Shown here one piece after another: positions 26,048 to 39,407 of a stretch of DNA of 39,407 nt; the first letter of the stretch is position 1; each line of letters opens with the position of its first letter. The position numbers were made by a program, and so were the translations under genes. The stretch spans positions 1 through 39,407 of the IMG/VR virus record IMGVR_UViG_3300014962_000001; one strand, written 5' to 3'. The notes under the pieces were generated by a model, which saw only the letters and a list, made by a program, of their open reading frames with translations, made no database searches and was not told where the DNA came from. This DNA is from a virus.

Positions 26048-27304
26048 TCAGTATCCTGATATTACATCATAAGTCTCATAGTCTTCTTCCTCATAGTCAG
26101 GAAGGAACGCTGAGATAGCTAATTGTTCAACATAAGCCAAAGCATCAACCAAGTCATCATGTACGCCCTTAGTAGGGAACATAATCAGTTGATCTTTGAA
26201 CTCTTCAAAGTCTTCATCTTCGTTAAGAATGATATGACCATGTTCAAACCTACCTTGCAAAGCCCAGACAACACGATCAGTCTTCTTCTTGTTGCCATGA
26301 GTAAGGGTTTGAATATGAGCAAAAGTGTTGTATTGACGCATCATGTCCTGTAAGACACCCATAACAGCATTCATAGCTGTTCCACGCTCAATACCGATCT
26401 GAGTAGGTTGATATTCCTTGATGTTCTTCAAGATCCTCATGCAGGTGTCTTTAATGTCCCACCGTCCATGCTCAATCTTTTCTACGTACCATTTATTGTC
26501 ATTACCGATCTTGACCACAGCCATAGCTGTTTCGTCTAGTCTCTTCTTGTTCTGCGAGCCATCAGAGATGTTCTCAAAGCCTGCCAAGTCGATAGCAATG
26601 ACATAAGTACCATCATCAGGCACTGGACCTTCCTTGATCCACTCAGCTTTGAAGATGTCGGCACCTGCTGTATCGAAGCTAGACAAGTATTCCTGTTTGA
26701 ATGCAAAGGAACTTAAAGTACGTTTAGCTGCTTCAATTTCCTTCGGATCAATCGTCTCATTGTCTGCCGTGGTAAAGTGCCATGATTTCCACTCAGGATC
26801 TTCCCCTGTCTGGCCTAATTTAAAAATTTCATATAGCCAATTTCTTCCAGATGGAGTCGAAATAAATAAAGCTCTACCTTTTTTATCTGACAAAGCTGCT
26901 CGAAGAATCTTTTGCCAAACATCTTCTTTAATAAAAGCACACTCATCAAGAACAAGATATGTCAAAGACACACCACGTAACGAGTCTGGATTATCTGCCC
27001 CTCTTACTAGAATTTTTCGTCCATTAATCAAACTTATTTCAAGATTGTTAATATGACTAGACTTAATAATCGGTCTTCCTAGTTCGTGAAGTAAGTCCCA
27101 GATAATCGTGCGGGCTTGTCCAAGCGTAGGAGCGACATACATAACAGCCGATCCTTCTGGACAATTTAATGCCTCAATTAATAAAGTCACAGCAGAAAGT
27201 CTAGATTTACCACAACGTCGTCCCGCAGCAACAACTTTAAATCTATGGGTATCTTCAAAAACAGCACGTTGCCATTTTAAAAGTTGAAAGTTTAGCTCAG
27301 CCAT
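26048..27304 (-). CDS. terminase large subunit
   Basis: Walker [10 protein letters not shown] and Walker B LVLDECAF. Nuclease acidic motifs IAIDLAG and HDDLVDAL. Confidence 0.9.
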
Positions 27305-27631: not shown

Positions 27632-28012
27632 TTACCGGGAATCTACATCCGTTACGTCAACATCGACAATATCGTCCGTAGTCTGTACTGTTGGCGTGCC
27701 CACTGAACTTATGTTGATACTAATCTGAGGTGTACCTCCACCAGCCTTAGCAGTCTCAAACGCTGAGACAGGAATAATACGATCTACAATAAGTTTCCAC
27801 GCAGCAGCTTGGTTCTTATGCTCATCATTCAGAGCAGCATCATAAATAGCTTCTAAGACCTTAGCTGACTTAGGAGAGTTAAGCATCCTAAGCTTATATT
27901 CGTTGATGATAGCAGCATCACCCTTTGGTCTACCTACAGACCTAGATTCTTTAATCTCTGCTATGTCAGACTTAGGAGGCCTCCCTCTTTTATTCCCCGA
28001 TGGCTTTGTCAT
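27632..28012 (-). CDS. small terminase subunit / DNA-binding protein (putative)
   Basis: AT-hook-like RGRPPK and VGRPKG motifs. Lies upstream of the HNH and large terminase genes. Confidence 0.4.
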   Translation of the reverse strand: MTKPSGNKRGRPPKSDIAEIKESRSVGRPKGDAAIINEYKLRMLNSPKSAKVLEAIYDAALNDEHKNQAAAWKLIVDRIIPVSAFETAKAGGGTPQISINISSVGTPTVQTTDDIVDVDVTDVDSR

Positions 28013-28328
28013 CTTTATAGCCTTTCAGGTACTTCTTGTTGTATTCCTTTTTACAAGACTTACACCAAGTAGAGTAGCCAGTGAATGTTTTCTTATCTAC
28101 ATTAAAGTCAGACAAAGACTTCTCTTCGTTACAAGCAGTGCAAAGCTTATGTCCTTTATCCATTGCTTCCTTAATAGCCTTTTTCTTCAAGAAAGATGCC
28201 TTTTGAGCGGCTTTACGATCCTGATACTTTGGAGAAGCATTAGGACTACGGCCATAAGGTTCTGCATAACTAAAGACAGAAACATCTTTAGGTACATAAC
28301 TTTGAATGTTGTTAATCGGTGAAGTCAT
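27990..28328 (-). CDS. zinc-finger protein (first gene of the minus arm)
   Basis: CTAC...(17)...CKSC motif. AAAGGA RBS. Confidence 0.5.
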   Translation of the reverse strand: MTSPINNIQSYVPKDVSVFSYAEPYGRSPNASPKYQDRKAAQKASFLKKKAIKEAMDKGHKLCTACNEEKSLSDFNVDKKTFTGYSTWCKSCKKEYNKKYLKGYKDDKAIGE

Positions 28329-28551
28329 AGTCTTTATCCTTTCATAGGAGACTGTGTAGTCTATAGAATTTCTTTAACGTACAGGAATCTAAGATAAATA
28401 TATACTTTAAGTTAATACTTGTCTTAGTTCCCTTACAGGTGTACGTAATCCTGTCTAAGATGCTTTGTAGTGGGGTCAGGCTACTTAGCAACTCAGAAGT
28501 CTTTATCTTGAGTTCCTGATGTGTCTTTACATTTAATCAACACATACATAT

Positions 28552-28580
28552 ATCTTAGCACGTATTTTACTTCATGTCAA
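28552..28580 (-). promoter_or_regulatory. sigma70-like promoter (minus strand): TTGACA-N17-TAAGAT
   Basis: Read from the reverse complement of 28552-28580. Confidence 0.45.
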
Positions 28581-28707
28581 GTCTTTTCTACAATTTCTTT
28601 TAAAATTTCTTAGCCAGTGCGTTTTTTATACTTTAAAGGTACCTCTATAGTTCCCCTTTCAGGGTGCTCGGATTCCTCCTCAGCTCCTTCCTAGATTTCC
28701 CTTACAT

Positions 28708-28736
28708 ATCATACACTTATATTTGATATCTGTCAA
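28708..28736 (-). promoter_or_regulatory. sigma70-like promoter (minus strand): TTGACA-N17-TATGAT
   Basis: Read from the reverse complement of 28708-28736; 11/12 match to consensus. Confidence 0.6.
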
Positions 28737-28823
28737 GTACTTTTTAGGTCTATTTTTACTTTTTTGTGTGCCTATGTAGCTCCTGCAAAAGTTACACAAC
28801 AGCAACACCCCTCCCCCCCATGT

Positions 28824-28842
28824 CTTACAAGATCCTTACAAG
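28824..28842 (+). promoter_or_regulatory. Two CTTACAAG copies in 11-bp phase
   Basis: Copies at 28824-28831 and 28835-28842, preceded by the C-tract CCCCTCCCCCCC (28808-28819). Confidence 0.5.
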
Positions 28843-28857
28843 TCTATGCCTCTAAAG

Positions 28858-28877
28858 TTATCCACAGGTTATCCACA
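28858..28877 (+). promoter_or_regulatory. Two perfect DnaA boxes (TTATCCACA) in 11-bp phase
   Basis: aGTTATCCACAgGTTATCCACAc; boxes at 28858-28866 and 28869-28877. Confidence 0.6.
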
Positions 28878-28974
28878 CTTCGTTGACATTGTCGTCAGAG
28901 TGCCACTTGAACGACACTTAATTGGGGACAGATTAGTGCTTAAAAAGTAGGCAGTGTGAGGGGTGATGTAGAAC

Positions 28975-29004
28975 CCTACAAAGCAAACCTACAAAGCAAA
29001 CCTA
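28975..29004 (+). repeat. 13-bp tandem repeat CCTACAAAGCAAA, about 2.3 copies
   Basis: 28975-28987 equals 28988-29000, followed by a partial CCTA. Confidence 0.85.
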
Positions 29005-29006
29005 GT

Positions 29007-29036
29007 AAGACAGCTGTCAGGATTTTATAGCATAAT
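29007..29036 (+). promoter_or_regulatory. Candidate early promoter AAGACA-N18-CATAAT, containing the palindrome GACAGCTGTC
   Basis: Weak -35. Perfect 10-bp palindrome at 29009-29018. About 65 nt upstream of the first plus-arm gene. Confidence 0.3.
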
Positions 29037-29100
29037 GCGTCCCTGTCGGCCCCAGGGTATCGGAGCATGTCGCCCCGACTGGTGGCTGGAGGGTTCTGAC

Positions 29101-29349
29101 ATGGCAAAGGTCTCAAGGCTCTTCGTGGGCAATCTGTCCAATGGCACGCCTACGGAAGCTGCTATGCGCGAGGATGGCGCTATGTTCCGTCGCTTTTATG
29201 AATTCAATGGCACGGGCAAGGCCTGGACGAAATGGGTCAAGATGGAGGAGCAGTACTGGACTGGCGAGGGGAAAGAACACCTGTCATGTGGCTTCGGTTC
29301 TTATCGTGAAATCAACGCAGACGGTTGCAAGTATCGTCTGCCAAATTAA
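29101..29349 (+). CDS. early hypothetical protein
   Basis: GGAGGG RBS 6 nt before the ATG (MAKVSRLFVGN...). High GC. Confidence 0.55.
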   Translation: MAKVSRLFVGNLSNGTPTEAAMREDGAMFRRFYEFNGTGKAWTKWVKMEEQYWTGEGKEHLSCGFGSYREINADGCKYRLPN

Positions 29350-29394
29350 CCTAAAAAACATCGCAAAGCAAGGGTAAACACCAGCGAAGCGACT

Positions 29395-29423
29395 ATTGTA
29401 GGGGCCTCCAAAGCCTCTACAAT
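29395..29423 (+). other. Stable RNA hairpin (11-bp stem, 7-nt loop) without a U tract
   Basis: ATTGTAGGGGC-ctccaaa-GCCTCTACAAT, with one G-U pair. Confidence 0.6.
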
Positions 29424-29454
29424 GGCACCGTCACCAACCAAACAGGAGCAAACC

Positions 29455-29661
29455 ATGAAGCTGATTCACCGCCAAGGCAACAACAGAACATACCGAACAG
29501 ACAAGGGCGACATCGAGATTGTGGTCTGTCTTGATCGCAATCTGTACGTCAGACCAGGTTACTATGTCCGCGTCTCTTATAAGTATCCTGATGAAGTTAT
29601 GACAACTGCTTATTCATCCGGAAAGCGTGCTGCAATGGCAGCTTATAAGTCAATGACCTGA
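29455..29661 (+). CDS. early hypothetical protein
   Basis: AGGAGCAAACC ATG context (MKLIHRQGNN...). Confidence 0.55.
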   Translation: MKLIHRQGNNRTYRTDKGDIEIVVCLDRNLYVRPGYYVRVSYKYPDEVMTTAYSSGKRAAMAAYKSMT

Positions 29662-29675
29662 CCAAAGGAAACACC

Positions 29676-29756
29676 ATGAAAAATCTTGAATCGGTTGTCT
29701 ATTCTTTCATCTGTTCTATTCCGCTGGCTGTCTTTGTCTTGAAGCATTTCATTTAA
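29676..29756 (+). CDS. 26-aa hydrophobic micro-protein
   Basis: AAAGGAAACACC ATG; MKNLESVVYSFICSIPLAVFVLKHFI. Confidence 0.45.
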   Translation: MKNLESVVYSFICSIPLAVFVLKHFI

Positions 29757-29767
29757 AGGAGCAAACC

Positions 29768-29860
29768 ATGAAACGAATCAATTGGCCGGATGTGGCATAT
29801 GCTGTCGTGTGCTGTGCTGTCTTTGCCCTCTGGGGTGTCTTGCTAGGACTAGGGGTGTAA
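29768..29860 (+). CDS. 30-aa hydrophobic micro-protein
   Basis: AAAGGAGCAAACC ATG; MKRINWPDVAYAVVCCAVFALWGVLLGLGV. Confidence 0.45.
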   Translation: MKRINWPDVAYAVVCCAVFALWGVLLGLGV

Positions 29861-29891
29861 CATAGGCGACACCGTGTAGCGTTTTAGTCTG

Positions 29892-29900
29892 TGCTAGAAT
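29892..29900 (+). promoter_or_regulatory. Extended -10 promoter candidate TGcTAGAAT
   Basis: TG at 29892-29893 and TAGAAT at 29895-29900. About 75 nt upstream of the acidic protein gene. Confidence 0.35.
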
Positions 29901-29973
29901 GCTATGCAGTGACGTACTGTGACGCACTCAGCCGCCTGACTGTCTCAGGCATCAACCTCTAAAGGTATCAATC

Positions 29974-30315
29974 ATGGCTATCGTTCAAACCCTGACTAAA
30001 TCAGCATTCATCGACGCATTCAAACAATCCTCACGTAAAGATCAATTCTCATACCACGGCCTTGAGTGCCTTTTTGAGTACCTGGAAGAGTACAGCGATA
30101 GCACTGGCGAGCCGTTCGAGCTTGACGTAATCGCCATTTGCTGCGATTTTACCGAAGCATCCTATAAAGACATCGCCAACGATTCCCGCATTGACCTGAG
30201 CGATGCTGATGGCGATGCTGAGGAAGAATACCGCATTGTCTTGGAGTACCTGCAAGACAACACCCAAGTTATTGAGCTGGGCGACGATGAAACCCTGATC
30301 TATCAATGCTTCTAA
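29974..30315 (+). CDS. highly acidic early protein (candidate DNA mimic / anti-restriction)
   Basis: 113 aa; hand count gives 27 D+E against 7 K+R. Confidence 0.6.
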   Translation: MAIVQTLTKSAFIDAFKQSSRKDQFSYHGLECLFEYLEEYSDSTGEPFELDVIAICCDFTEASYKDIANDSRIDLSDADGDAEEEYRIVLEYLQDNTQVIELGDDETLIYQCF

Positions 30316-30323
30316 GGGCTTCC

Positions 30324-30491
30324 ATGTATAAAATCGTTGAAAAATCTAATCCATTAGCCGTTCATTGTCTTTGTGACAGCCTAGAACGGGCACAGCATTG
30401 GGTTGACGTTAAAGCCGTGGAATACTGTCTTAAAGGTTATTTCATGGATAAGACGCTCACGTCTGAGTCTTTTATGATTGTGGAGGCATGA
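30324..30491 (+). CDS. hypothetical protein
   Basis: MYKIVEKSNPL...; the track start at 30306 is an alternative. Confidence 0.4.
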   Translation: MYKIVEKSNPLAVHCLCDSLERAQHWVDVKAVEYCLKGYFMDKTLTSESFMIVEA

Positions 30492-30685
30492 TGTACCAAG
30501 TACAATTCATCACCAGTGGCATTGTGGCGTTCAGCAGTCACGATAGAGGCCTCTGCACATACTTTATCGAGTGCAACAACTATGCACCTGATGTACCTGA
30601 GGTTGACCCTGACACAGGAGAGCTTACAGGATTGTGGCTCAAGGGCGATTGTTTGAATCTGTTTGTCTTAAGGAAAGTGAAATGA
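30488..30685 (+). CDS. hypothetical protein
   Basis: 65 aa; ATGA overlaps at both ends. Confidence 0.45.
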   Translation: MMYQVQFITSGIVAFSSHDRGLCTYFIECNNYAPDVPEVDPDTGELTGLWLKGDCLNLFVLRKVK

Positions 30686-30912
30686 AAGATCACCAACTAT
30701 GGATTGATACGATCAATCTAAACACTCAAGCGGGCAAGACCATGAAAGAGGCCCTGTTATGCGCTGATGCCTTGTCTGGTTGGCCGTTTAAGTACGTCAA
30801 CGGAGAACAAACTCCAGATAGTGTCGCATTAGAGACAATGAAACAGCCTAGACCATTGACAGCCTATGAATCTGTTATGTCTGATCCTGATACAAAGGAA
30901 GCTTTAATTTAA
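30682..30912 (+). CDS. hypothetical protein
   Basis: MKDHQLWIDT...; GGAAAGTGAA RBS. Confidence 0.45.
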   Translation: MKDHQLWIDTINLNTQAGKTMKEALLCADALSGWPFKYVNGEQTPDSVALETMKQPRPLTAYESVMSDPDTKEALI

Positions 30913-30932
30913 ACAAAGAAAGCGAGTTTAAA

Positions 30933-31748
30933 ATGAAATTCAACGTAAAAAATAAACATATTTTTGATGGCGCACAGGTGTCAGGTAACGCACAAGTGTC
31001 AGGTAACGCACGGGTGTCAGGTGACGCACAGGTGTCAGGTGACGCACAGGTGTCAGGTGACGCATGGGTGTCAGGTAACGCATGGGTGTTAGGTGACGCA
31101 TGGGTGTCAGGTAACGCATGGGTGTTAGGTGACGCACGGGTGTTAGGTAACGCACAGGTGTTAGGTGACGCACGGGTGTTAGGTAACGCACGGGTGTTAG
31201 ATAACGCATGGGTGTCAGGTGACGCATGGGTGTCAGGTAACGCATGGGTGTTAGGTGACGCACAGGTGTTGGGTAACGCACAGGTGTTAGGTAACGCACA
31301 GGTGTTAGGTGACGCACGGGTGTTAGGTAACGCACAGGTGTTAGGTAACGCACAGGTGTTAGGTAACGCACAGGTGTTAGGTGACGCACGGGTGTCAGGT
31401 GACGCACAGGTGTTAGGTAACGCATGGGTGTCAGGTGATGCATGGGTGTCTGGTAACGCCTGGGTGTCTGGTGACGCACAAGTGTATGGTGACGCACGGG
31501 TGTCAGGTAACGCATTAATTGAAAAAACGAGCGATTACCTCCTAATAGGACCTGCCAAATCTTCTGGTCGATTCACAACTGCACATAAAGACTCTAAAAT
31601 TGGGGTACGTGTTAATTGTGGATGCTTTACAGGTACTGTAAAAGAGTTTTCAGATGCTATCGAAAAGACACACAAAGATAACAAAGAACATTTAGAACAG
31701 TATAGGATGTTCTGCCAACTGATCACCTTTAACTTTGGAGTCACCTAA
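30933..31748 (+). CDS. hexapeptide-repeat (predicted beta-solenoid) protein with a conserved C-terminal CGCF domain
   Basis: 31 consecutive G-[ND]-A-[QRW]-V-[SL] hexads, then LLIGP...VNCGCFTGTVKEFSDAIEKTH... I recognise this as a recurrent but uncharacterised phage protein architecture. Confidence 0.8.
   Translation: MKFNVKNKHIFDGAQVSGNAQVSGNARVSGDAQVSGDAQVSGDAWVSGNAWVLGDAWVSGNAWVLGDARVLGNAQVLGDARVLGNARVLDNAWVSGDAWVSGNAWVLGDAQVLGNAQVLGNAQVLGDARVLGNAQVLGNAQVLGNAQVLGDARVSGDAQVLGNAWVSGDAWVSGNAWVSGDAQVYGDARVSGNALIEKTSDYLLIGPAKSSGRFTTAHKDSKIGVRVNCGCFTGTVKEFSDAIEKTHKDNKEHLEQYRMFCQLITFNFGVT
30966..31523 (+). repeat. 31 x 18-nt near-perfect tandem repeat (coding)
   Basis: Unit GGTRACGCAYRGGTGTYA read directly from the sequence; 558 nt. 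Confidence 0.95.
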
Positions 31749-33145: not shown

Positions 33146-33488
33146 CAAAAAGGCCGAGCAGCCCCGTGGCGAAGCCACATTAGCACAGCAAGAGCCTGTC
33201 TCATGGGAGAGGTTCATGTCAGTTGAAAAAGAACTGCAAGACATGACCGCTGAATTTATGAGAGTTGCCAAAGAGCTGGTCGCGCTCAAAGCACAGCCAA
33301 GCAAGCCGCTGACGGATGAGCAGATCAACCTATTCATCAATGGACGAGGCGAAGAAGGCGATGATGATTACGTCGAACCAACTGGAGACGGTTTTTGTTT
33401 GACGGACGCCGATCTTGTGCAGCTTGTTCGACGGGTGGAGGTCGCCCACGGCATTATGTCCGTATCGGACGGCAAGGGGAACGCATGA
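33129..33488 (+). CDS. hypothetical protein
   Basis: MSKSIDKKAEQ...; ATGA overlap with the primase start. Confidence 0.5.
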   Translation: MSKSIDKKAEQPRGEATLAQQEPVSWERFMSVEKELQDMTAEFMRVAKELVALKAQPSKPLTDEQINLFINGRGEEGDDDYVEPTGDGFCLTDADLVQLVRRVEVAHGIMSVSDGKGNA

Positions 33489-35080
33489 CTTCTAAGTTTC
33501 TGCGTCATATTGCCTGCGAACACTGTGGAAGCACTGACGGGAATTCGCTCTATGATGATGGGCACACTCACTGCTTTGTCTGTGGTAAAACCGAGTTTGA
33601 ACATCAAATCGAAGAAAGATCAGTTATGAGGGACGCTGTAGCGCCTAGAAAGACACCTGTGGAACTAAAAGGTACAATAAAGTCAATCCCTGATCGTGGA
33701 ATCACTCAACAAACTTGTGAGAAATTTGGAGTTACTCAAGATGAAGGAAAACATTATTATCCTTACACTGACGCAGGATCAAATGTGGTCGCTGTTAAGG
33801 TACGAAACGTATCTGACAAATCTTTTAGCATTGGTGGACGCTTTACAGAAGCGACACTTTTTGGTCAACATCTGTTCCACGGAAGCGGTAAGTACGTCAC
33901 TATCTACGAAGGAGAACTCGACGCTCTTGCAGGCTATCAGCTCACTGGAAGTCAATGGCCCTCGGTCAGCATTCGCAACGGAGCACAAGCAGCCCTGAAG
34001 GACTGTAAAGCACAGTACGAATGGCTCAATAGCTTCGAGAACATCGTCATTTGCTTCGATGCCGACGAACCCGGCCAGAAGGCAGCTAAAGAGGTTGCTG
34101 AACTGTTTGGTCAGAAAGCCAAGATTGTCAAGCACAAGAGTGGTTACAAGGATGCTTGTGAGTACTTGCAGGCAGGAGCTACGAAGGAGTTTGTCAATGA
34201 ATGGTGGAAAGCTGAAACGTACATTCCTGACGGCATCGTCAATGCTGCTGACCTGTGGGAGGAAATCTGTAAGCCTGAGCCTGTAGCGGAAGCGCAGTAT
34301 CCTTGGAAAGGGCTTAACAAGCTGCTATATGGCCTGCGGCGGGCAGAACTGATTACGGTCACCGCAGGGTCTGGGTTGGGTAAGAGTCAATTTCTACGGG
34401 AGATCCTGTATCATCTGCTAAAGACTACACAGTGGAACATTGGTGGTCTATTCTTGGAGGAATCCACGAGGAAGACTGCTAGGAGTATCATGTCTCTTCA
34501 TGCTAATAAGCTGTTGCATTTGCCCGATACGCCAGTAACTGAACAGGAGCTTAAAGATGCCTTTGATAACACTCTCGGTACTCATCGTATTTACCTTTTC
34601 GACCACTTTGGCAGTTCTGACGTGGATAACATATCTAACCGCATACGATACATGGCTAAGGCGTGTGATTGCAAGGTTATCTTTCTTGATCACATTTCTA
34701 TTGTTGTTAGTGGTCTGGATAATGGTGATGAGCGTAAAGCTATTGACTCAATGATGACGAAATTGCGTACACTGGTACAGGAACTGGAAGTTACCTTGAT
34801 CTGTGTATCACACCTACGGAGGCCACAAGGAAATGCAGGACACGAAGACGGACAAGCTGTATCGCTCAGTCAGCTTAGAGGATCTGGAGCGATTGCACAA
34901 CTCAGCGATGCAGTCATTACTCTTGAACGGAACAGCATGGCTGAGAATGAGTCAGAGCGTCACCGCACACGAGTGGCAGTTGCAAAGAATCGGTACAATG
35001 GATACACTGGCCCAGCCTGTGACCTTCAGTACGTTAAAGAAACAGGACGAATGATTGAAATGGAAGAGGAACAACTATGA
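33485..35080 (+). CDS. T7 gp4-like bifunctional primase-helicase
   Basis: Zn finger CEHCGS..(15)..CFVCG. TOPRIM motifs YEGELDAL and FDADEPG. Walker A GSGLGKS and Walker B IFLDHIS. Confidence 0.95.
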   Translation: MTSKFLRHIACEHCGSTDGNSLYDDGHTHCFVCGKTEFEHQIEERSVMRDAVAPRKTPVELKGTIKSIPDRGITQQTCEKFGVTQDEGKHYYPYTDAGSNVVAVKVRNVSDKSFSIGGRFTEATLFGQHLFHGSGKYVTIYEGELDALAGYQLTGSQWPSVSIRNGAQAALKDCKAQYEWLNSFENIVICFDADEPGQKAAKEVAELFGQKAKIVKHKSGYKDACEYLQAGATKEFVNEWWKAETYIPDGIVNAADLWEEICKPEPVAEAQYPWKGLNKLLYGLRRAELITVTAGSGLGKSQFLREILYHLLKTTQWNIGGLFLEESTRKTARSIMSLHANKLLHLPDTPVTEQELKDAFDNTLGTHRIYLFDHFGSSDVDNISNRIRYMAKACDCKVIFLDHISIVVSGLDNGDERKAIDSMMTKLRTLVQELEVTLICVSHLRRPQGNAGHEDGQAVSLSQLRGSGAIAQLSDAVITLERNSMAENESERHRTRVAVAKNRYNGYTGPACDLQYVKETGRMIEMEEEQL

Positions 35081-35808: not shown

Positions 35809-36033
35809 ATGATGGCTGACATTGCAATGTGTATGGACAACTCGTGTCCAGAAAGACATTCTTGCTATAGGTATAATGCAGTGCCGAATCCGTATCGACA
35901 AAGCTATTTTGCTGAAAGCCCGAGGAAGATGGATGGATGTCCTTATTATTCAAAAGTGAGAGATACAGATGAGGTTAGTTCTAGATATCGAAACGGATCT
36001 ATCACACAAGAAGATCCATCTGGTAGTCACTAA
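35809..36033 (+). CDS. Cys-rich small protein
   Basis: CMDNSCPERHSCYRY motif. The 3' end overlaps the polymerase start by 65 nt. Confidence 0.45.
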   Translation: MMADIAMCMDNSCPERHSCYRYNAVPNPYRQSYFAESPRKMDGCPYYSKVRDTDEVSSRYRNGSITQEDPSGSH

Positions 36034-37681
36034 AGACATTGATACAGGTGAAGTAAGAACATGGAAAGAAGCAACTGGCCTAAGCGACTATCTAAGCATG
36101 GCTACACTCCTGATTGCTCACAATGGAATCGGATTCGATTTTCCAGTGTTGAACAGATCATGGAAGACGAAGATCAGATTGAAGCACGTATTCGACACTC
36201 TTATCGTAAGCAGGCTTCTCGATCCGAGCAGGGAACAAGGACACTCTCTGGAGGCATGGGGACAGTCTCTAGGCTTCAGGAAGATTAACTATAAGTCCGT
36301 ATGGCAATGGCTCCAAGGCAGACGAGAGGAATACGATGGAGAATGTTTCGATAAACCTATTGATAATCTTCTGGAGTCTTATTGCATTAGGGACGTTGAA
36401 GTATGTGCTAAGCTTTACAATCATCTATCTATGGAATTGGATGCTAAAGAGTTTAGTAAAGAGTCAGTTGAATTGGAACACAAAGTCGCGGCTATAATCG
36501 CAGAACAGGAACGCAATGGATTCAAATTGGACACCGTTTACGCCACTTGTCTTCTTATTGACATCAAAGGAAAAATGGCAGGAATATATGAACAGATGCA
36601 AAGTAGATGGCCTCCCTACGAGGTTGCACGAGTCTCAGAAAAAACAGGAAAGCAACTCAAGCCCTTGCTGGTTACTTTCAACCCCGGAAGCAGACAACAA
36701 ATCGGACAAAAGCTGATCGAGCTTGGGTGGAAACCTAAACAGTTTACACCTACGGGTCATCCGATTGTTGACGAATCTGTGCTAGCTAAGTTGGACATTC
36801 CAGAGGCTAAACTGATTGCTGATTATCTGATGCTCCAGAAGCGTGTAGCTCAGATAGAGAGCTGGTTAGAGGCTGTGAAGGAAGACGGCAGGGTTCACGG
36901 TAAAGTTATTACCAACGGGGCAGTGACAGGCCGCATGACACACAGTAGCCCTAACATGGCACAGATCCCTAATGCAGGATCAGTGTATGGGCATGAGTGT
37001 CGTGAGTGCTGGTCTGTTGAAGATGGTAATGTCTTGGTAGGCTGTGACGCTTCAGGTCTGGAGCTTCGGATGCTTGCTCACTACATGAAGGATGAAGGAT
37101 ATGTCAGAACAGTTACTGAAGGAAGCTCTAAAGATGGTACAGATGTCCATACAGTTAATCAACGAGCAGCGGGCCTTGCTAGTCGAGACAACGCAAAGAC
37201 TTTCATCTATGCTTTTCTATATGGAGCAGGCGATGCTAAAATTGGAAGCATCATTGGAGGAACCGCCAAAGATGGAGCAAAGCTCAAATCAAAATTTCTT
37301 CAGCAAACCCCAGCCTTGGCAAAGTTGCTTGAACGAGTTTCTAGGCAAGCAGAAAAAGGATGGGTACCGGGACTTGACGGCAGACGTATCTGGGTGCGCT
37401 CTATACACGCTGCACTCAACGCTCTCCTCCAAGGCGCAGGAGCTATCGTAATGAAGAAAGCATTGTGTATCTTCTACGACAAGATCAAGGCTAATAAGTG
37501 GCCTGTAAAGCTAGTCGCTAATGTGCATGATGAATTTCAGTTTGAGTGTCCTCCTTCGGTAGCTGAAGAGGCAGGCAAAGCGGCCCGTCAAAGCATCATA
37601 GATGCAGGGATTTATTTCAACCTTCGATGTCCTTTGGACGGGGAGTACAAAATTGGCAAATCATGGAAAGAAACACACTGA
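35969..37681 (+). CDS. family A (T7-like) DNA polymerase with 3'-5' exonuclease domain
   Basis: Exo I LDIETD. Motif A DASGLELR, motif B RDNAKTFIYAFLYGAG, motif C VHDE. Confidence 0.95.
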   Translation: MRLVLDIETDLSHKKIHLVVTKDIDTGEVRTWKEATGLSDYLSMATLLIAHNGIGFDFPVLNRSWKTKIRLKHVFDTLIVSRLLDPSREQGHSLEAWGQSLGFRKINYKSVWQWLQGRREEYDGECFDKPIDNLLESYCIRDVEVCAKLYNHLSMELDAKEFSKESVELEHKVAAIIAEQERNGFKLDTVYATCLLIDIKGKMAGIYEQMQSRWPPYEVARVSEKTGKQLKPLLVTFNPGSRQQIGQKLIELGWKPKQFTPTGHPIVDESVLAKLDIPEAKLIADYLMLQKRVAQIESWLEAVKEDGRVHGKVITNGAVTGRMTHSSPNMAQIPNAGSVYGHECRECWSVEDGNVLVGCDASGLELRMLAHYMKDEGYVRTVTEGSSKDGTDVHTVNQRAAGLASRDNAKTFIYAFLYGAGDAKIGSIIGGTAKDGAKLKSKFLQQTPALAKLLERVSRQAEKGWVPGLDGRRIWVRSIHAALNALLQGAGAIVMKKALCIFYDKIKANKWPVKLVANVHDEFQFECPPSVAEEAGKAARQSIIDAGIYFNLRCPLDGEYKIGKSWKETH

Positions 37682-37856: not shown

Positions 37857-37872
37857 TTGTGTAGTAGAAAAA

Positions 37873-37957
37873 GCGAGTGTGGTGAAACAGGCAAACACAC
37901 TGGATTTAAAATCCAACGCCGTAAGGCTTGCGGGTTCGATTCCCGCCACTCGCACCA
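37873..37957 (+). tRNA. tRNA-Leu (anticodon UAA), type II with a long variable arm and encoded CCA
   Basis: Acceptor stem GCGAGTG/CACTCGC. T arm GCGGG-TTCGATT-CCCGC. Anticodon loop TT-TAA-AA. 85 nt. Confidence 0.9.
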
Positions 37958-37994
37958 ACCCGCTGCATTGCAGCACAATTTAAAGGAAAATGAA

Positions 37995-38414
37995 ATGGAT
38001 ATGAAACCTGTAAAGATCGGTGGTGAACTCTTCTGGAGCAACTGGATGAACCAATACAATACTAAGTTCAACGAGGACAACAAGAAGTATGAATGCACGA
38101 TCGGTAATCTTTCAGACAAAGCCGCTGAAGCCCTTAAGGAGCTTGGCATCCAGATCAAAGAGAAAGATACGATGGGTAAATACATTGTAGGCAAGAGCCT
38201 GTATGTCTTTGAGCCTGTCGATGAAGACGGTAAGCCTGTGGATATTGCTAAGATTGGTAACGGAACTAAGGTGACTGCTCTGGTGTCTAGTTATCGTCAC
38301 AAGATGTCTGCTAAGTATGGTGCTGCTCCTTCGATCAAGAAGCTGATTGTGACCGAGCTTAAGGAATATAACCCGGAACCACGTGAGGAAGAAGAGGCTG
38401 ATGACGTTCTCTAA
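37995..38414 (+). CDS. gp2.5-like single-stranded DNA-binding protein
   Basis: 140 aa with an acidic C-terminal tail (EEEEADDVL) in the replication module. The track ORF start (37857) overlaps the tRNA and is rejected. Confidence 0.55.
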   Translation: MDMKPVKIGGELFWSNWMNQYNTKFNEDNKKYECTIGNLSDKAAEALKELGIQIKEKDTMGKYIVGKSLYVFEPVDEDGKPVDIAKIGNGTKVTALVSSYRHKMSAKYGAAPSIKKLIVTELKEYNPEPREEEEADDVL

Positions 38415-39229: not shown

Positions 39230-39407
39230 GCGAAGCACCAAAGAAGCTACTCATTGATGCTGATTACTTAATTTACGGAATTGGTTTTGCTAGTGAGGAG
39301 GATTCTGAGAAGTTTGCAAAGAGCAGGTTAGTAGAGACATTAGAAGATTTGGTCTACATACACCTGAAGGCAGACTCTTATGAAGCCTTCTTAACTGGTA
39401 AGAACAA
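39226..39407 (+). CDS. 5'-3' exonuclease, 5' part (continues at base 2 through the overlap)
   Basis: ATGA overlap with the preceding stop. MSEAPKKLLIDADYLIYG... is the N-terminal acidic FEN motif. Confidence 0.85.
   Translation, partial: MSEAPKKLLIDADYLIYGIGFASEEDSEKFAKSRLVETLEDLVYIHLKADSYEAFLTGKN
39321..39407. repeat. Terminal overlap, copy B (identical to 1-87)
   Basis: Exact identity on direct comparison. Confidence 0.95.

Follow-up and report, generated by a model that had tools for sequence, protein, structure and literature searches.

The locus described here raises a simple question: why would a lytic phage that encodes its own replication proteins carry high-affinity binding sites for DnaA, the master replication initiator of its bacterial host? 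The phage is represented by the IMG/VR virus record IMGVR_UViG_3300014962_000001, whose 39,407 nucleotides were analyzed as a whole and are referred to here as the window. A sequence-only reading of the window had singled out two perfect DnaA boxes in a non-coding region of about 770 bp from which both gene arms diverge. This description holds: the gap measures 772 nt (28329-29100) and separates the first open reading frame (ORF) of the minus arm (27990-28328) from the first ORF of the plus arm. Within it, GTTATCCACAgGTTATCCACAc (28858-28877) contains the sole two exact TTATCCACA 9-mers of the window, which we confirmed at 28858 and 28869, in the same orientation and with starts 11 bp apart. 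Judging from sequence comparisons, we hold with high confidence that these boxes are real DnaA sites under selection, and their ligand is almost certainly host DnaA. The function that we favor for them, a role in replication, is our best guess.

The pair is a tandem repeat of an 11-mer, GTTATCCACA(g/c), at 28857-28878. When compared with the reference boxes of the E. coli MG1655 oriC (R4, agagTTATCCACAgt; R1, tgTTATCCACAggg), its unit combines the 5′ flank of R4 (agTTATCCACAg) with the 3′ flank of R1 (TTATCCACAgg). The earlier estimate that a single box should occur about 0.3 times by chance was reproduced, with a mean of 0.28 exact boxes in shuffled windows (3 of 100 shuffles had two or more anywhere) and 0.35 under a first-order Markov model. 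Under the same model only 1.6e-6 same-strand doublets at 11-bp spacing are expected, which agrees with the view that the pair is unlikely to be accidental. Over 28585-31042 the window is matched at 100% identity by a separate Logan assembly (L375, run SRR1573580), and the doublet is therefore not an assembly artefact; exact-protein look-ups for near-identical strains returned one Logan contig only, identical to the window. The genome-wide count that had been proposed as a check found no further exact copy of the 9-mer and a mild excess of one-mismatch variants (18 versus 9.9 expected). A 34-codon ATG ORF running across the boxes (28846-28950) was rejected as a gene, having no ribosome-binding site and a peptide that is not conserved in relatives.

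These numbers leave room for a functionless pair, in which a chance box was duplicated by replication slippage: at 0.35 expected copies a single box is not improbable, and a perfect 11-mer tandem repeat is obtainable by slippage. Since one such event could create the second copy, conservation in relatives is a stronger argument against chance than the probability itself. Relatives were collected through a terminase-based scan of IMG/VR, which found 347, and the best 80 of these (75-94% amino-acid identity) were taken. The 46 that extend for 2.2 kb or more upstream of the terminase gene, chosen blind to the motif, entered a census of box clusters that admitted exact and one-mismatch boxes. Conservation in related phages, on which the earlier claim had been made to depend, stands in part: 26 of the 46 carry a cluster of two to six boxes in the same gap, and the other 20, including the relative labeled L121, have lost or replaced theirs. 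Gap windows totaling 69 kb contain 63 exact boxes versus 2 in 381 kb elsewhere, a density approximately 170-fold higher. In aligned relatives the boxes are perfect, whereas their flanks are 67-79% identical. The variants that do occur (TTGTCCACA, TTATGCACA, TTATACACA and TTATTCACA) differ by a single base, mostly at positions of known DnaA-box tolerance. Beyond this family, the exact 20-mer TTATCCACAGGTTATCCACA is present in more than 120 IMG/VR contigs, and a reversed-sequence control of the same composition and repeat structure in none. We conclude that selection appears to keep DnaA-type sites at this gap position in many lineages. The box density, reached with differing numbers, spacings and orientations, the perfection of the boxes within diverged flanks and the count of the 20-mer largely refute a pair without function, an explanation that we find scarcely credible.

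The number, spacing and orientation of the boxes vary between relatives, and three layouts could be distinguished. Type A, found in the window, L122, L123, L130, L131 and L133, has two to three tandem boxes 11 bp apart, downstream of a C-tract. Type B (L134, L145, L153, L125 and L177) has three forward and two reverse TGTGGACAA boxes converging on the palindrome GTCTTATATAAGAC, with AGTCACAA repeats to the left of the array, and type C (L144 and L185) has four reverse boxes at a spacing of 19-35 bp. The palindrome GTCTTATATAAGAC is perfect and lies between convergent DnaA-box arrays in several relatives. Every relative also has its own lineage-specific short direct repeats in the gap; examples are CTTACAAG, AGTCACAA, CTTATATAAG, CCACCTGAGTCA (5 copies in L141), CTTATATAAGCAT, ATGTCTTATATAAGAC and AACATTAAAGACA. 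Repeats not shared with the window have three to six copies in relatives. BLAST homology of the window to L122 and L123 ends exactly at 28877, a mosaic breakpoint, and homology to L121 stops at 28844, where L121 has other repeats.

The wider occurrence of the motif bears on the identity of the ligand. At least 28 of the listed 20-mer loci encode terminases 50-80% identical to that of the window, with boxes again adjoining the terminase module. Among the matches listed, 120 loci fall into at least 26 groups unlinked by tblastx, the largest of which (74 loci) includes the family of the window. Similar box pairs are found in phages of E. coli, Klebsiella, Lactococcus, Microbacterium and Streptomyces, that is, of Proteobacteria, Actinobacteria and Firmicutes. 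The same motif pair in phages of three phyla argues that the ligand is the universally conserved DnaA and not a phage protein. In a variable-gap scan of viral contigs, direct pairs of perfect boxes were most often spaced by 11-13, 20-22 or 30-34 bp from start to start. A period of about 10.5 bp results, which indicates that same-face phasing is a general rule, and the 11-bp spacing in the window, previously interpreted as placing both boxes on one face of the helix, conforms to it. By a crude and unreliable ORF calling, box arrays in other viral contigs were not enriched in divergent gaps.

A phage-encoded protein could nevertheless bind repeats that merely resemble DnaA boxes. The gaps of relatives are full of lineage-specific repeats that probably bind other factors, and most early ORFs of the phage have no assigned function. 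Against this, the window boxes match the DnaA consensus exactly and have R1 and R4 flanks, the single-base variants are mostly of types tolerated in DnaA boxes, the motif recurs in the phyla and unlinked contig groups mentioned above, and no early gene co-occurs with the boxes. We regard a phage protein as an improbable ligand. The proposal that a phage with no RNA polymerase of its own (none was recognizable among the ORFs scanned) may recruit host DnaA is the most economical reading of boxes shared with 26 relatives, R1/R4 flanks, a divergent hub and a motif pair spread across three phyla.

What would host DnaA do in this gap? Our preferred answer, which we hold tentatively, is that the pair provides high-affinity host DnaA sites that aid the start of phage replication, as an accessory and not as an essential initiator. 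Replication initiation is the canonical activity of DnaA, the protein serves as an accessory enhancer at many plasmid origins, and the origins of T7 are associated with promoters. From the sequence and the established biochemistry of DnaA boxes, two DnaA molecules would bind the pair head-to-tail, both on the same helical face. In oriC arrays, contacts between DnaA molecules are supported by directly oriented boxes with a 2-nt spacer; here the same spacer could permit contacts between neighbors, and the pair may nucleate a short DnaA oligomer. The complex would lie between divergent promoters, about 120-130 bp from each, beside the C-tract and AT-rich DNA (Table 1), where it could aid DNA opening or stabilize an R-loop. 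Divergent transcription would store negative supercoils at the site and favor opening. The T7-type primase-helicase and the family A polymerase of the phage might then initiate on the exposed strand, the primase-helicase being the part of the replisome that an origin would need to load. The context is origin-like in several respects: no other non-coding region of the genome is as large as the gap, which falls at the minimum of the cumulative GC skew (28-29 kb) and holds AT-rich stretches and iteron-like repeats, and some relatives have convergent box arrays. An accessory enhancer role would also explain why some relatives have no boxes, or other repeat modules at the same place.

A number of observations weigh against such a role in replication. 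The presence of boxes flips at least 12 times on the terminase tree, 5 of 34 clusters of at least 98% identical terminases are mixed for box presence, and L121 has no boxes although its terminase is at least 98% identical to that of the box-carrying L122. None of 23 more distant relatives binned in metagenome-assembled genomes (38-73% terminase identity) has a box cluster. Together with the 20 of 46 relatives without boxes, these flips imply that the boxes are dispensable for replication in the family, and, with the varied architecture, that they are an exchangeable accessory cis-module in a mosaic hot spot rather than part of a fixed core. The presence or absence of boxes showed no association with any early gene family, in a comparison of low statistical power, and no Rep-like or O-like initiator gene was matched by Pfam or PHROG among the early ORFs. 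The helicase of the phage is its own and independent of the DnaA-DnaC pathway. Because gene orientation switches here, the GC-skew minimum is confounded. The AT-rich DNA is found 5′ of TTATCCACA, whereas the unwinding element of E. coli R1 is on the 3′ side, and the 3′ flank of the window pair (28878-28960) has 40-48% GC and offers no AT-rich unwinding region. On that side, 10 nt after box 2, there are three middle-T triplets (ATT GTC GTC), with no CTA consensus and a chance probability of about 1/3; this run is absent in L122 and L123, where nothing on the 3′ side is conserved. Finally, boxes in relatives adjoin sigma54-type promoter motifs: of the cases read, all lie 3-14 nt from the -24 or -12 elements except that of L144, at 27 nt, and these promoter-adjoining boxes in many relatives would fit control of transcription equally well.

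In that alternative, DnaA acts as a transcription factor: the pair would repress, activate or roadblock host RNA polymerase and thereby tie the balance of early and late arms to the level of host DnaA or the growth state. DnaA is known to regulate dnaA and nrd and to stimulate lambda pR (PMC8203912, plus general knowledge). The gap is indeed a promoter hub, with 7 sigma70-like sites versus 1.8 expected, and the fast gain, loss and re-orientation of boxes are typical of regulatory sites. The main evidence comes from the sigma54-type motifs (TGGCAY-N5-TTGCW) of relatives. Across all loci examined we counted 69, versus about 6 expected, or roughly ten-fold over chance, and for 30 of the 69 two or more DnaA boxes lie in the 160 bp upstream. 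In the terminase-selected relatives, 20 such motifs lie in the gap and 2 elsewhere, and they are found in 13 of 26 box carriers and 4 of 20 non-carriers. Type B relatives have a leftward sigma54-type site with three boxes upstream and one box covering the predicted start. In more distant phages (L025, L056, L065 and L244), up to six sigma54-type sites directly follow the box array and point into the replication arm; overall, some motifs face the replication arm and others the structural arm. No activator gene, encoding an enhancer-binding protein, was seen in the 3.7 kb downstream in L025. To our knowledge, sigma54-dependent phage promoters would be unusual, and boxes abutting sigma54-type arrays, as in part of the family, would on the broader reading given below imply a previously unknown interplay of DnaA and sigma54 RNA polymerase on phage DNA.

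The window itself fits this alternative less well. Its box pair is roughly central in the divergent region, approximately 122 bp (leftward) and 130 bp (rightward) from the nearest promoter-like -35 hexamers. A TTGACA located 5 nt downstream of box 2 is not followed by a usable -10 element. The gap contains no sigma54 promoter, even with 2-3 mismatches allowed, the sole sigma54-type trace in the window being a degenerate remnant on the minus strand at 28897-28911. The pairs of several cultured phages, described below, also lie in terminal repeats or convergent gaps, far from the promoters of flanking genes. Control of transcription by DnaA at the pair is in our view somewhat unlikely, yet it is the main rival of accessory help in replication, which we retain as the preferred reading.

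Cultured phages place such boxes in non-coding regions of several kinds. In Microbacterium phage Squash, a pair lies 342 nt in from the left end. Lactococcus phage 949 has a direct doublet in a convergent non-coding gap of more than 1 kb, and Streptomyces phage Karimac has one forward and one reverse box, an inverted pair 24 bp apart, in a gap of the same kind and size class. In the T7-like Klebsiella phages TVB03 and cp31 (Przondovirus) and the E. coli Berlinvirus nasanit, 4-6 boxes (6 in nasanit, 4-5 in the Klebsiella przondoviruses) lie about 80-170 bp from the TCTCACAGT end, after a C-tract and among CCTAAGG repeats, some of them in tandem at 11-12 bp. Those of nasanit adjoin the T7-like inner boundary of the terminal repeat. 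Since pairs in terminal regions or convergent gaps have no promoter to regulate, they argue for a role at the DNA level over a purely transcriptional one.

The same phages invite another explanation, in which the gap holds the physical ends or a terminal repeat of the genome, and DnaA, which is largely membrane-associated, binds the first-entering DNA, pausing or anchoring injection or protecting or processing the ends. The architecture around the boxes of TVB03, cp31 and nasanit, with its nearby end, C-tract and repeats, resembles that of the window gap, and the pair of Squash is likewise close to an end. The non-coding part of the left terminal repeat in T5-like phages (the injection-stop region) contains boxes in pairs, 3 nt apart, for which a role of this kind has been proposed and is unproven (10.1101/866236; PMC13250531). 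The terminase of the window is distantly T5-like, a possible small terminase with weak DUF5681 and AT-hook matches is encoded beside the gap, and 20 of the 80 terminase-selected contigs end inside the gap. Contig ends near the boxes, however, lie at variable distances (18, 23, 64 and 88 nt), which fits assembly breaks in a hypervariable mosaic region better, and the motif is only weakly enriched near contig ends (among the matches listed, 5 of 52 within 150 nt versus about 2 expected). The circular assembly of the window, with its 87-nt overlap inside a gene, is uninformative on termini, and relatives without boxes would have to enter without them. A terminus or DNA-entry element thus seems unlikely to us.

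Taken together, the aquatic podovirus group of the window, the T7-like Klebsiella and E. coli phages, the Lactococcus 949-like, Streptomyces and Microbacterium phages and T5 suggest a broader possibility. Phased pairs or arrays of perfect boxes could be a general, largely undescribed and host-phylum-independent cis-module in the non-coding terminal or control regions of lytic phages. Phages with their own replisomes would use it to bring in the host initiator for one shared task, for instance opening or priming of an origin, or the handling of DNA ends. We consider this generalization possible, if doubtful.

Titration of DnaA away from the host origin had been named among the possible functions. 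In this reading, the phage would act as a DnaA sink or manipulate the nucleotide state of DnaA in a datA- or DARS-like manner, shutting down or reprogramming initiation on the host chromosome; sites would be multiplied at the high copy number of an infection, and relatives carry up to six. The functional consensus TTWTNCACA is found 3 times in the genome versus 4.35 expected, its third match lying about 15 kb from the pair, and it is not enriched outside the pair; a genome-wide titration array was rejected on this count. datA and DARS require specific arrangements of at least three boxes plus IHF, an arrangement that is not present in the window with its two boxes. A lytic phage would also gain little from blocking host initiation, and 20 of 46 relatives have no sites at all. 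With only two sites per genome and no enrichment of the consensus elsewhere, titration is unlikely, and we rate any sink or manipulation of this kind as very improbable.

The remaining elements of the gap, together with the loci and genes used above, are listed in Table 1. The first plus-arm ORF most likely starts at 29101, downstream of a GGAGGG ribosome-binding site. Of the leftward promoters, the one at 28708-28736 is the strongest, and it is its -35 hexamer that lies 122 bp from box 1. The weak pair in 29007-29049 consists of a rightward AAGACA-18-CATAAT (29007-29036) and a leftward CCGACA-16-TAAAAT (29049 to 29022).

Table 1 Features of the divergent gap, genes of the window and related loci in other phages (window coordinates unless an L label is given)
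Feature	Position	Strand	Basis or remark
Leftward sigma70-like promoter TTGACA-17-TAAGAT with upstream TG	28552-28580	-	Promoter scan; its upstream region repeated
AT-rich segment, 28-34% GC, on 5′ side of boxes; contains strongest leftward promoter	28700-28800		GC profile
Leftward sigma70-like promoter TTGACA-17-TATGAT, towards structural arm	28708-28736	-	11/12 positions; consensus match only
Conserved non-coding block TTTTTTGTGTGC..GCTCCTGCAAAAG (T6GTGTGC..GCTCCTGCAAAAG)	28760-28791	+	Alignment
C-tract CCCCTCCCCCCC, 38 nt upstream of box 1	28808-28819	+	Sequence and relatives
Two CTTACAAG motifs, starts 11 bp apart (28824, 28835)	28824-28842	+	3-5 copies in L121-L123
DnaA box 1, exact TTATCCACA	28858-28866	+	5′ flank CTAAAG, 3′ flank GG
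DnaA box 2, exact TTATCCACA	28869-28877	+	2-nt spacer after box 1; same orientation, starts 11 bp apart
Element of about 40 nt, ACTTAATTGGGGACAGATTAGTGCTTAAAAAGTAGGCAGTGT	28916-28957	+	88-98% identical in about a dozen relatives with diverged flanks
Iteron-like tandem repeats (A)ACCTACAAAGCA (CCTACAAAGCA)	28972-29010	+	Two good copies and a degenerate third (about 2.5)
Overlapping weak promoter-like sites	29007-29049		9/12 matches each; candidates only
126-aa protein near gap	27632-28012	-	Weak DUF5681 and AT-hook matches
T7 gp4-like primase-helicase	33395-35080	+	phrog_239, E = 3e-195
Family A DNA polymerase	35969-37681	+	phrog_17, E = 4e-151
Sigma54-type motif loci	L025 10284-10426; L056 1533-1855; L065, L244, L005		
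Sigma54-type motifs in gap upstream of terminase	L125-L127, L134, L137, L145, L151, L153, L168, L174, L176, L121, L181, L186, L197		
T7-like box loci	L373 2358-2505 (TVB03); L380/L381 (cp31); L378 4140-4250 (nasanit)		

Among aligned relatives, the block at 28760-28791 is the best-conserved stretch of the gap. Extended to 28819, so that the T-tract/GCTCCTGCAAAAG block is followed by the C-tract, it is the best-conserved non-coding DNA in close relatives whether boxes are present or absent (L121, L128). The C-tract precedes the boxes in close type A relatives and in several distant box carriers; a T-tract together with a C-tract is also found upstream of the boxes in several distant relatives, and T7-like phages have a similar C-tract just inside the left end. 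The block and the C-tract region could signal packaging or a terminus, or could belong to an origin, and the C-tract could favor R-loops of leftward transcripts. The CTTACAAG motif would be a site for some factor, possibly phage-encoded. The element ACTTAATTGGGGACAGATTAGTGCTTAAAAAGTAGGCAGTGT occurs once in the genome; relatives carry it in inverted orientation, to the terminase side of the box module. Neither conservation as an ORF nor an Rfam match was found for it. A 9-nt remnant, TACTTTTTA (28738-28746), forms an inverted repeat with this element, the two flanking the box module. At the position of the iteron-like repeats, relatives carry other short repeats. Searches of the gap found no structured RNA with an Rfam match at E <= 1, and no long inverted repeats flank the box pair.

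The window is a complete, circularly assembled contig of an uncultured tailed phage with two divergent gene arms. Nucleotides 1-87 are identical to the last 87 (39321-39407), and this overlap falls inside a 5′-3′ exonuclease gene; the contig is therefore a circular assembly opened at an arbitrary point, and the true genome has about 39,320 bp. The minus arm runs from 28328 down to 8210 and encodes the large terminase (26048-27304), portal, scaffold, major capsid protein, tail proteins, endolysin and holin. Read from 29101 across the window end to 8167, the plus arm has small early ORFs without assigned function; besides the primase-helicase and the polymerase, it encodes the 5′-3′ exonuclease, a T7-type endonuclease I, ThyX, MazG, a class II ribonucleotide reductase, PhoH and ClpP. 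Cultured aquatic podoviruses have primase-helicases 44-50% identical to that of the window. No cultured phage gave a nucleotide match to the window; its terminase is less than 30% identical to those of cultured phages, and its portal is about 25% identical to those of HMO-2011-type phages. The 126-aa protein beside the gap is 60-70% identical even in relatives with only about 50% terminase identity, and is a candidate for the small terminase or for some other DNA-binding protein with a role at the gap. Host assignment from metagenome bins was abandoned as inconsistent, with terminase relatives in Luteolibacter, Burkholderiaceae, Sphingobacterium, Ignavibacteriaceae, archaea and others.

Two further features of the plus arm were noted. 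The early-arm ORF at 30933-31748 has repetitive collagen-like or tail-fibre-like internal repeats, with many self-matches of 70-75 nt between 31022 and 31514, and the break of the independent Logan contig falls at this ORF. Both ARAGORN and Rfam call a tRNA-Leu(TAA) gene at 37873-37957, across the start of the called ORF 37857-38414, which, given this overlap, is probably shorter or spurious at its 5′ end.

If DnaA is used by this phage, lytic phages with complete T7-type replisomes would still depend on, or sense, the master initiator of the host, and their development would be tied to the host cell cycle or growth state, which would be most relevant for phages of slow-growing aquatic bacteria. 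Such use of DnaA would also suggest how T7-like phages without their own RNA polymerase start replication, an open question as far as we know. In kind, host DnaA boxes on an extrachromosomal replicon are already known. The interest lies in three points: lytic phages, tractable T7-like coliphages among them, widely carry phased box pairs that are largely undescribed; near-identical phages swap the module rapidly; and, unexpectedly, boxes of relatives adjoin sigma54-type motifs. A limited literature search found no description of DnaA boxes in T7-like terminal regions, which is weak evidence of novelty. The swapping of the module among near-identical phages makes the gap a natural experiment in the exchange of regulatory or origin modules. 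Because the E. coli Berlinviruses, the Klebsiella przondoviruses and T5 share this type of box pair, they offer tractable systems for a widespread feature, including the long-debated injection-stop region of T5.

Among known systems, the R1 and R4 sites of E. coli oriC have the same 9-mer and the same flanks as the window boxes. Unlike oriC, the window has two sites only, it lacks a nearby dnaA or dnaN gene, a 13-mer unwinding element 3′ of the boxes and a cluster of GATC sites (28800-28900 holds one), and it belongs to a lytic phage with its own helicase. The basal unwinding system (BUS) of bacterial origins consists of tandem boxes at most 3 nt apart, a short spacer, at least three NAN trios (consensus 3′-GAT-5′) within 16 nt and AT-rich DNA (PMC8287927; BUS also PMC6669920). 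The tandem boxes of the window, with a 2-nt spacer and an upstream box of perfect consensus, resemble it in geometry. An oriC-type BUS was nevertheless rejected, given unconvincing trios and AT-rich DNA on the wrong (5′) side, beyond the C-tract.

Iteron-plasmid and ColE1-type origins (P1 oriR, pSC101, RK2, pBR322) use DnaA boxes as accessory sites, and the window shares with them an extrachromosomal replicon in which boxes that are dispensable or auxiliary lie near promoters, beside iteron-like repeats and AT-rich DNA (CCTACAAAGCA in about 2.5 copies, CTTACAAG twice, and the AT-rich DNA of 28700-28800). It differs from the iteron plasmids in being a lytic phage with no recognized Rep gene and a T7-like replisome in place of DnaB/DnaC/Pol III. 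DnaA-regulated promoters such as those of dnaA and nrdAB and lambda pR (PMC8203912) likewise have a box pair in the promoter region. The boxes of relatives touch promoter elements; those of the window lie more than 120 bp from the nearest promoter-like hexamers, so that adjacency is seen in the relatives only.

Closer parallels come from lytic phages. Like the injection-stop region of T5, the window has consensus boxes paired a few nucleotides apart in large, repeat-rich non-coding DNA. In T5, 7-8 boxes with 3-nt spacers are set in inverted repeats named IRC and IRD, which lie within a terminal repeat of 10 kb (10.1101/866236), whereas the window has one pair with a 2-nt spacer and no IRC/IRD-like inverted repeats, and thus no T5-type array. 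The T7-like phages TVB03, cp31 and nasanit differ from the window in encoding an RNA polymerase and in having co-linear genomes with defined ends, as opposed to divergent arms. They share with it a T7-type replisome, an upstream C-tract, flanks of the CTAAGG or CTAAAG type, tandem boxes at 11-12 bp and short CCTA..AG repeats.

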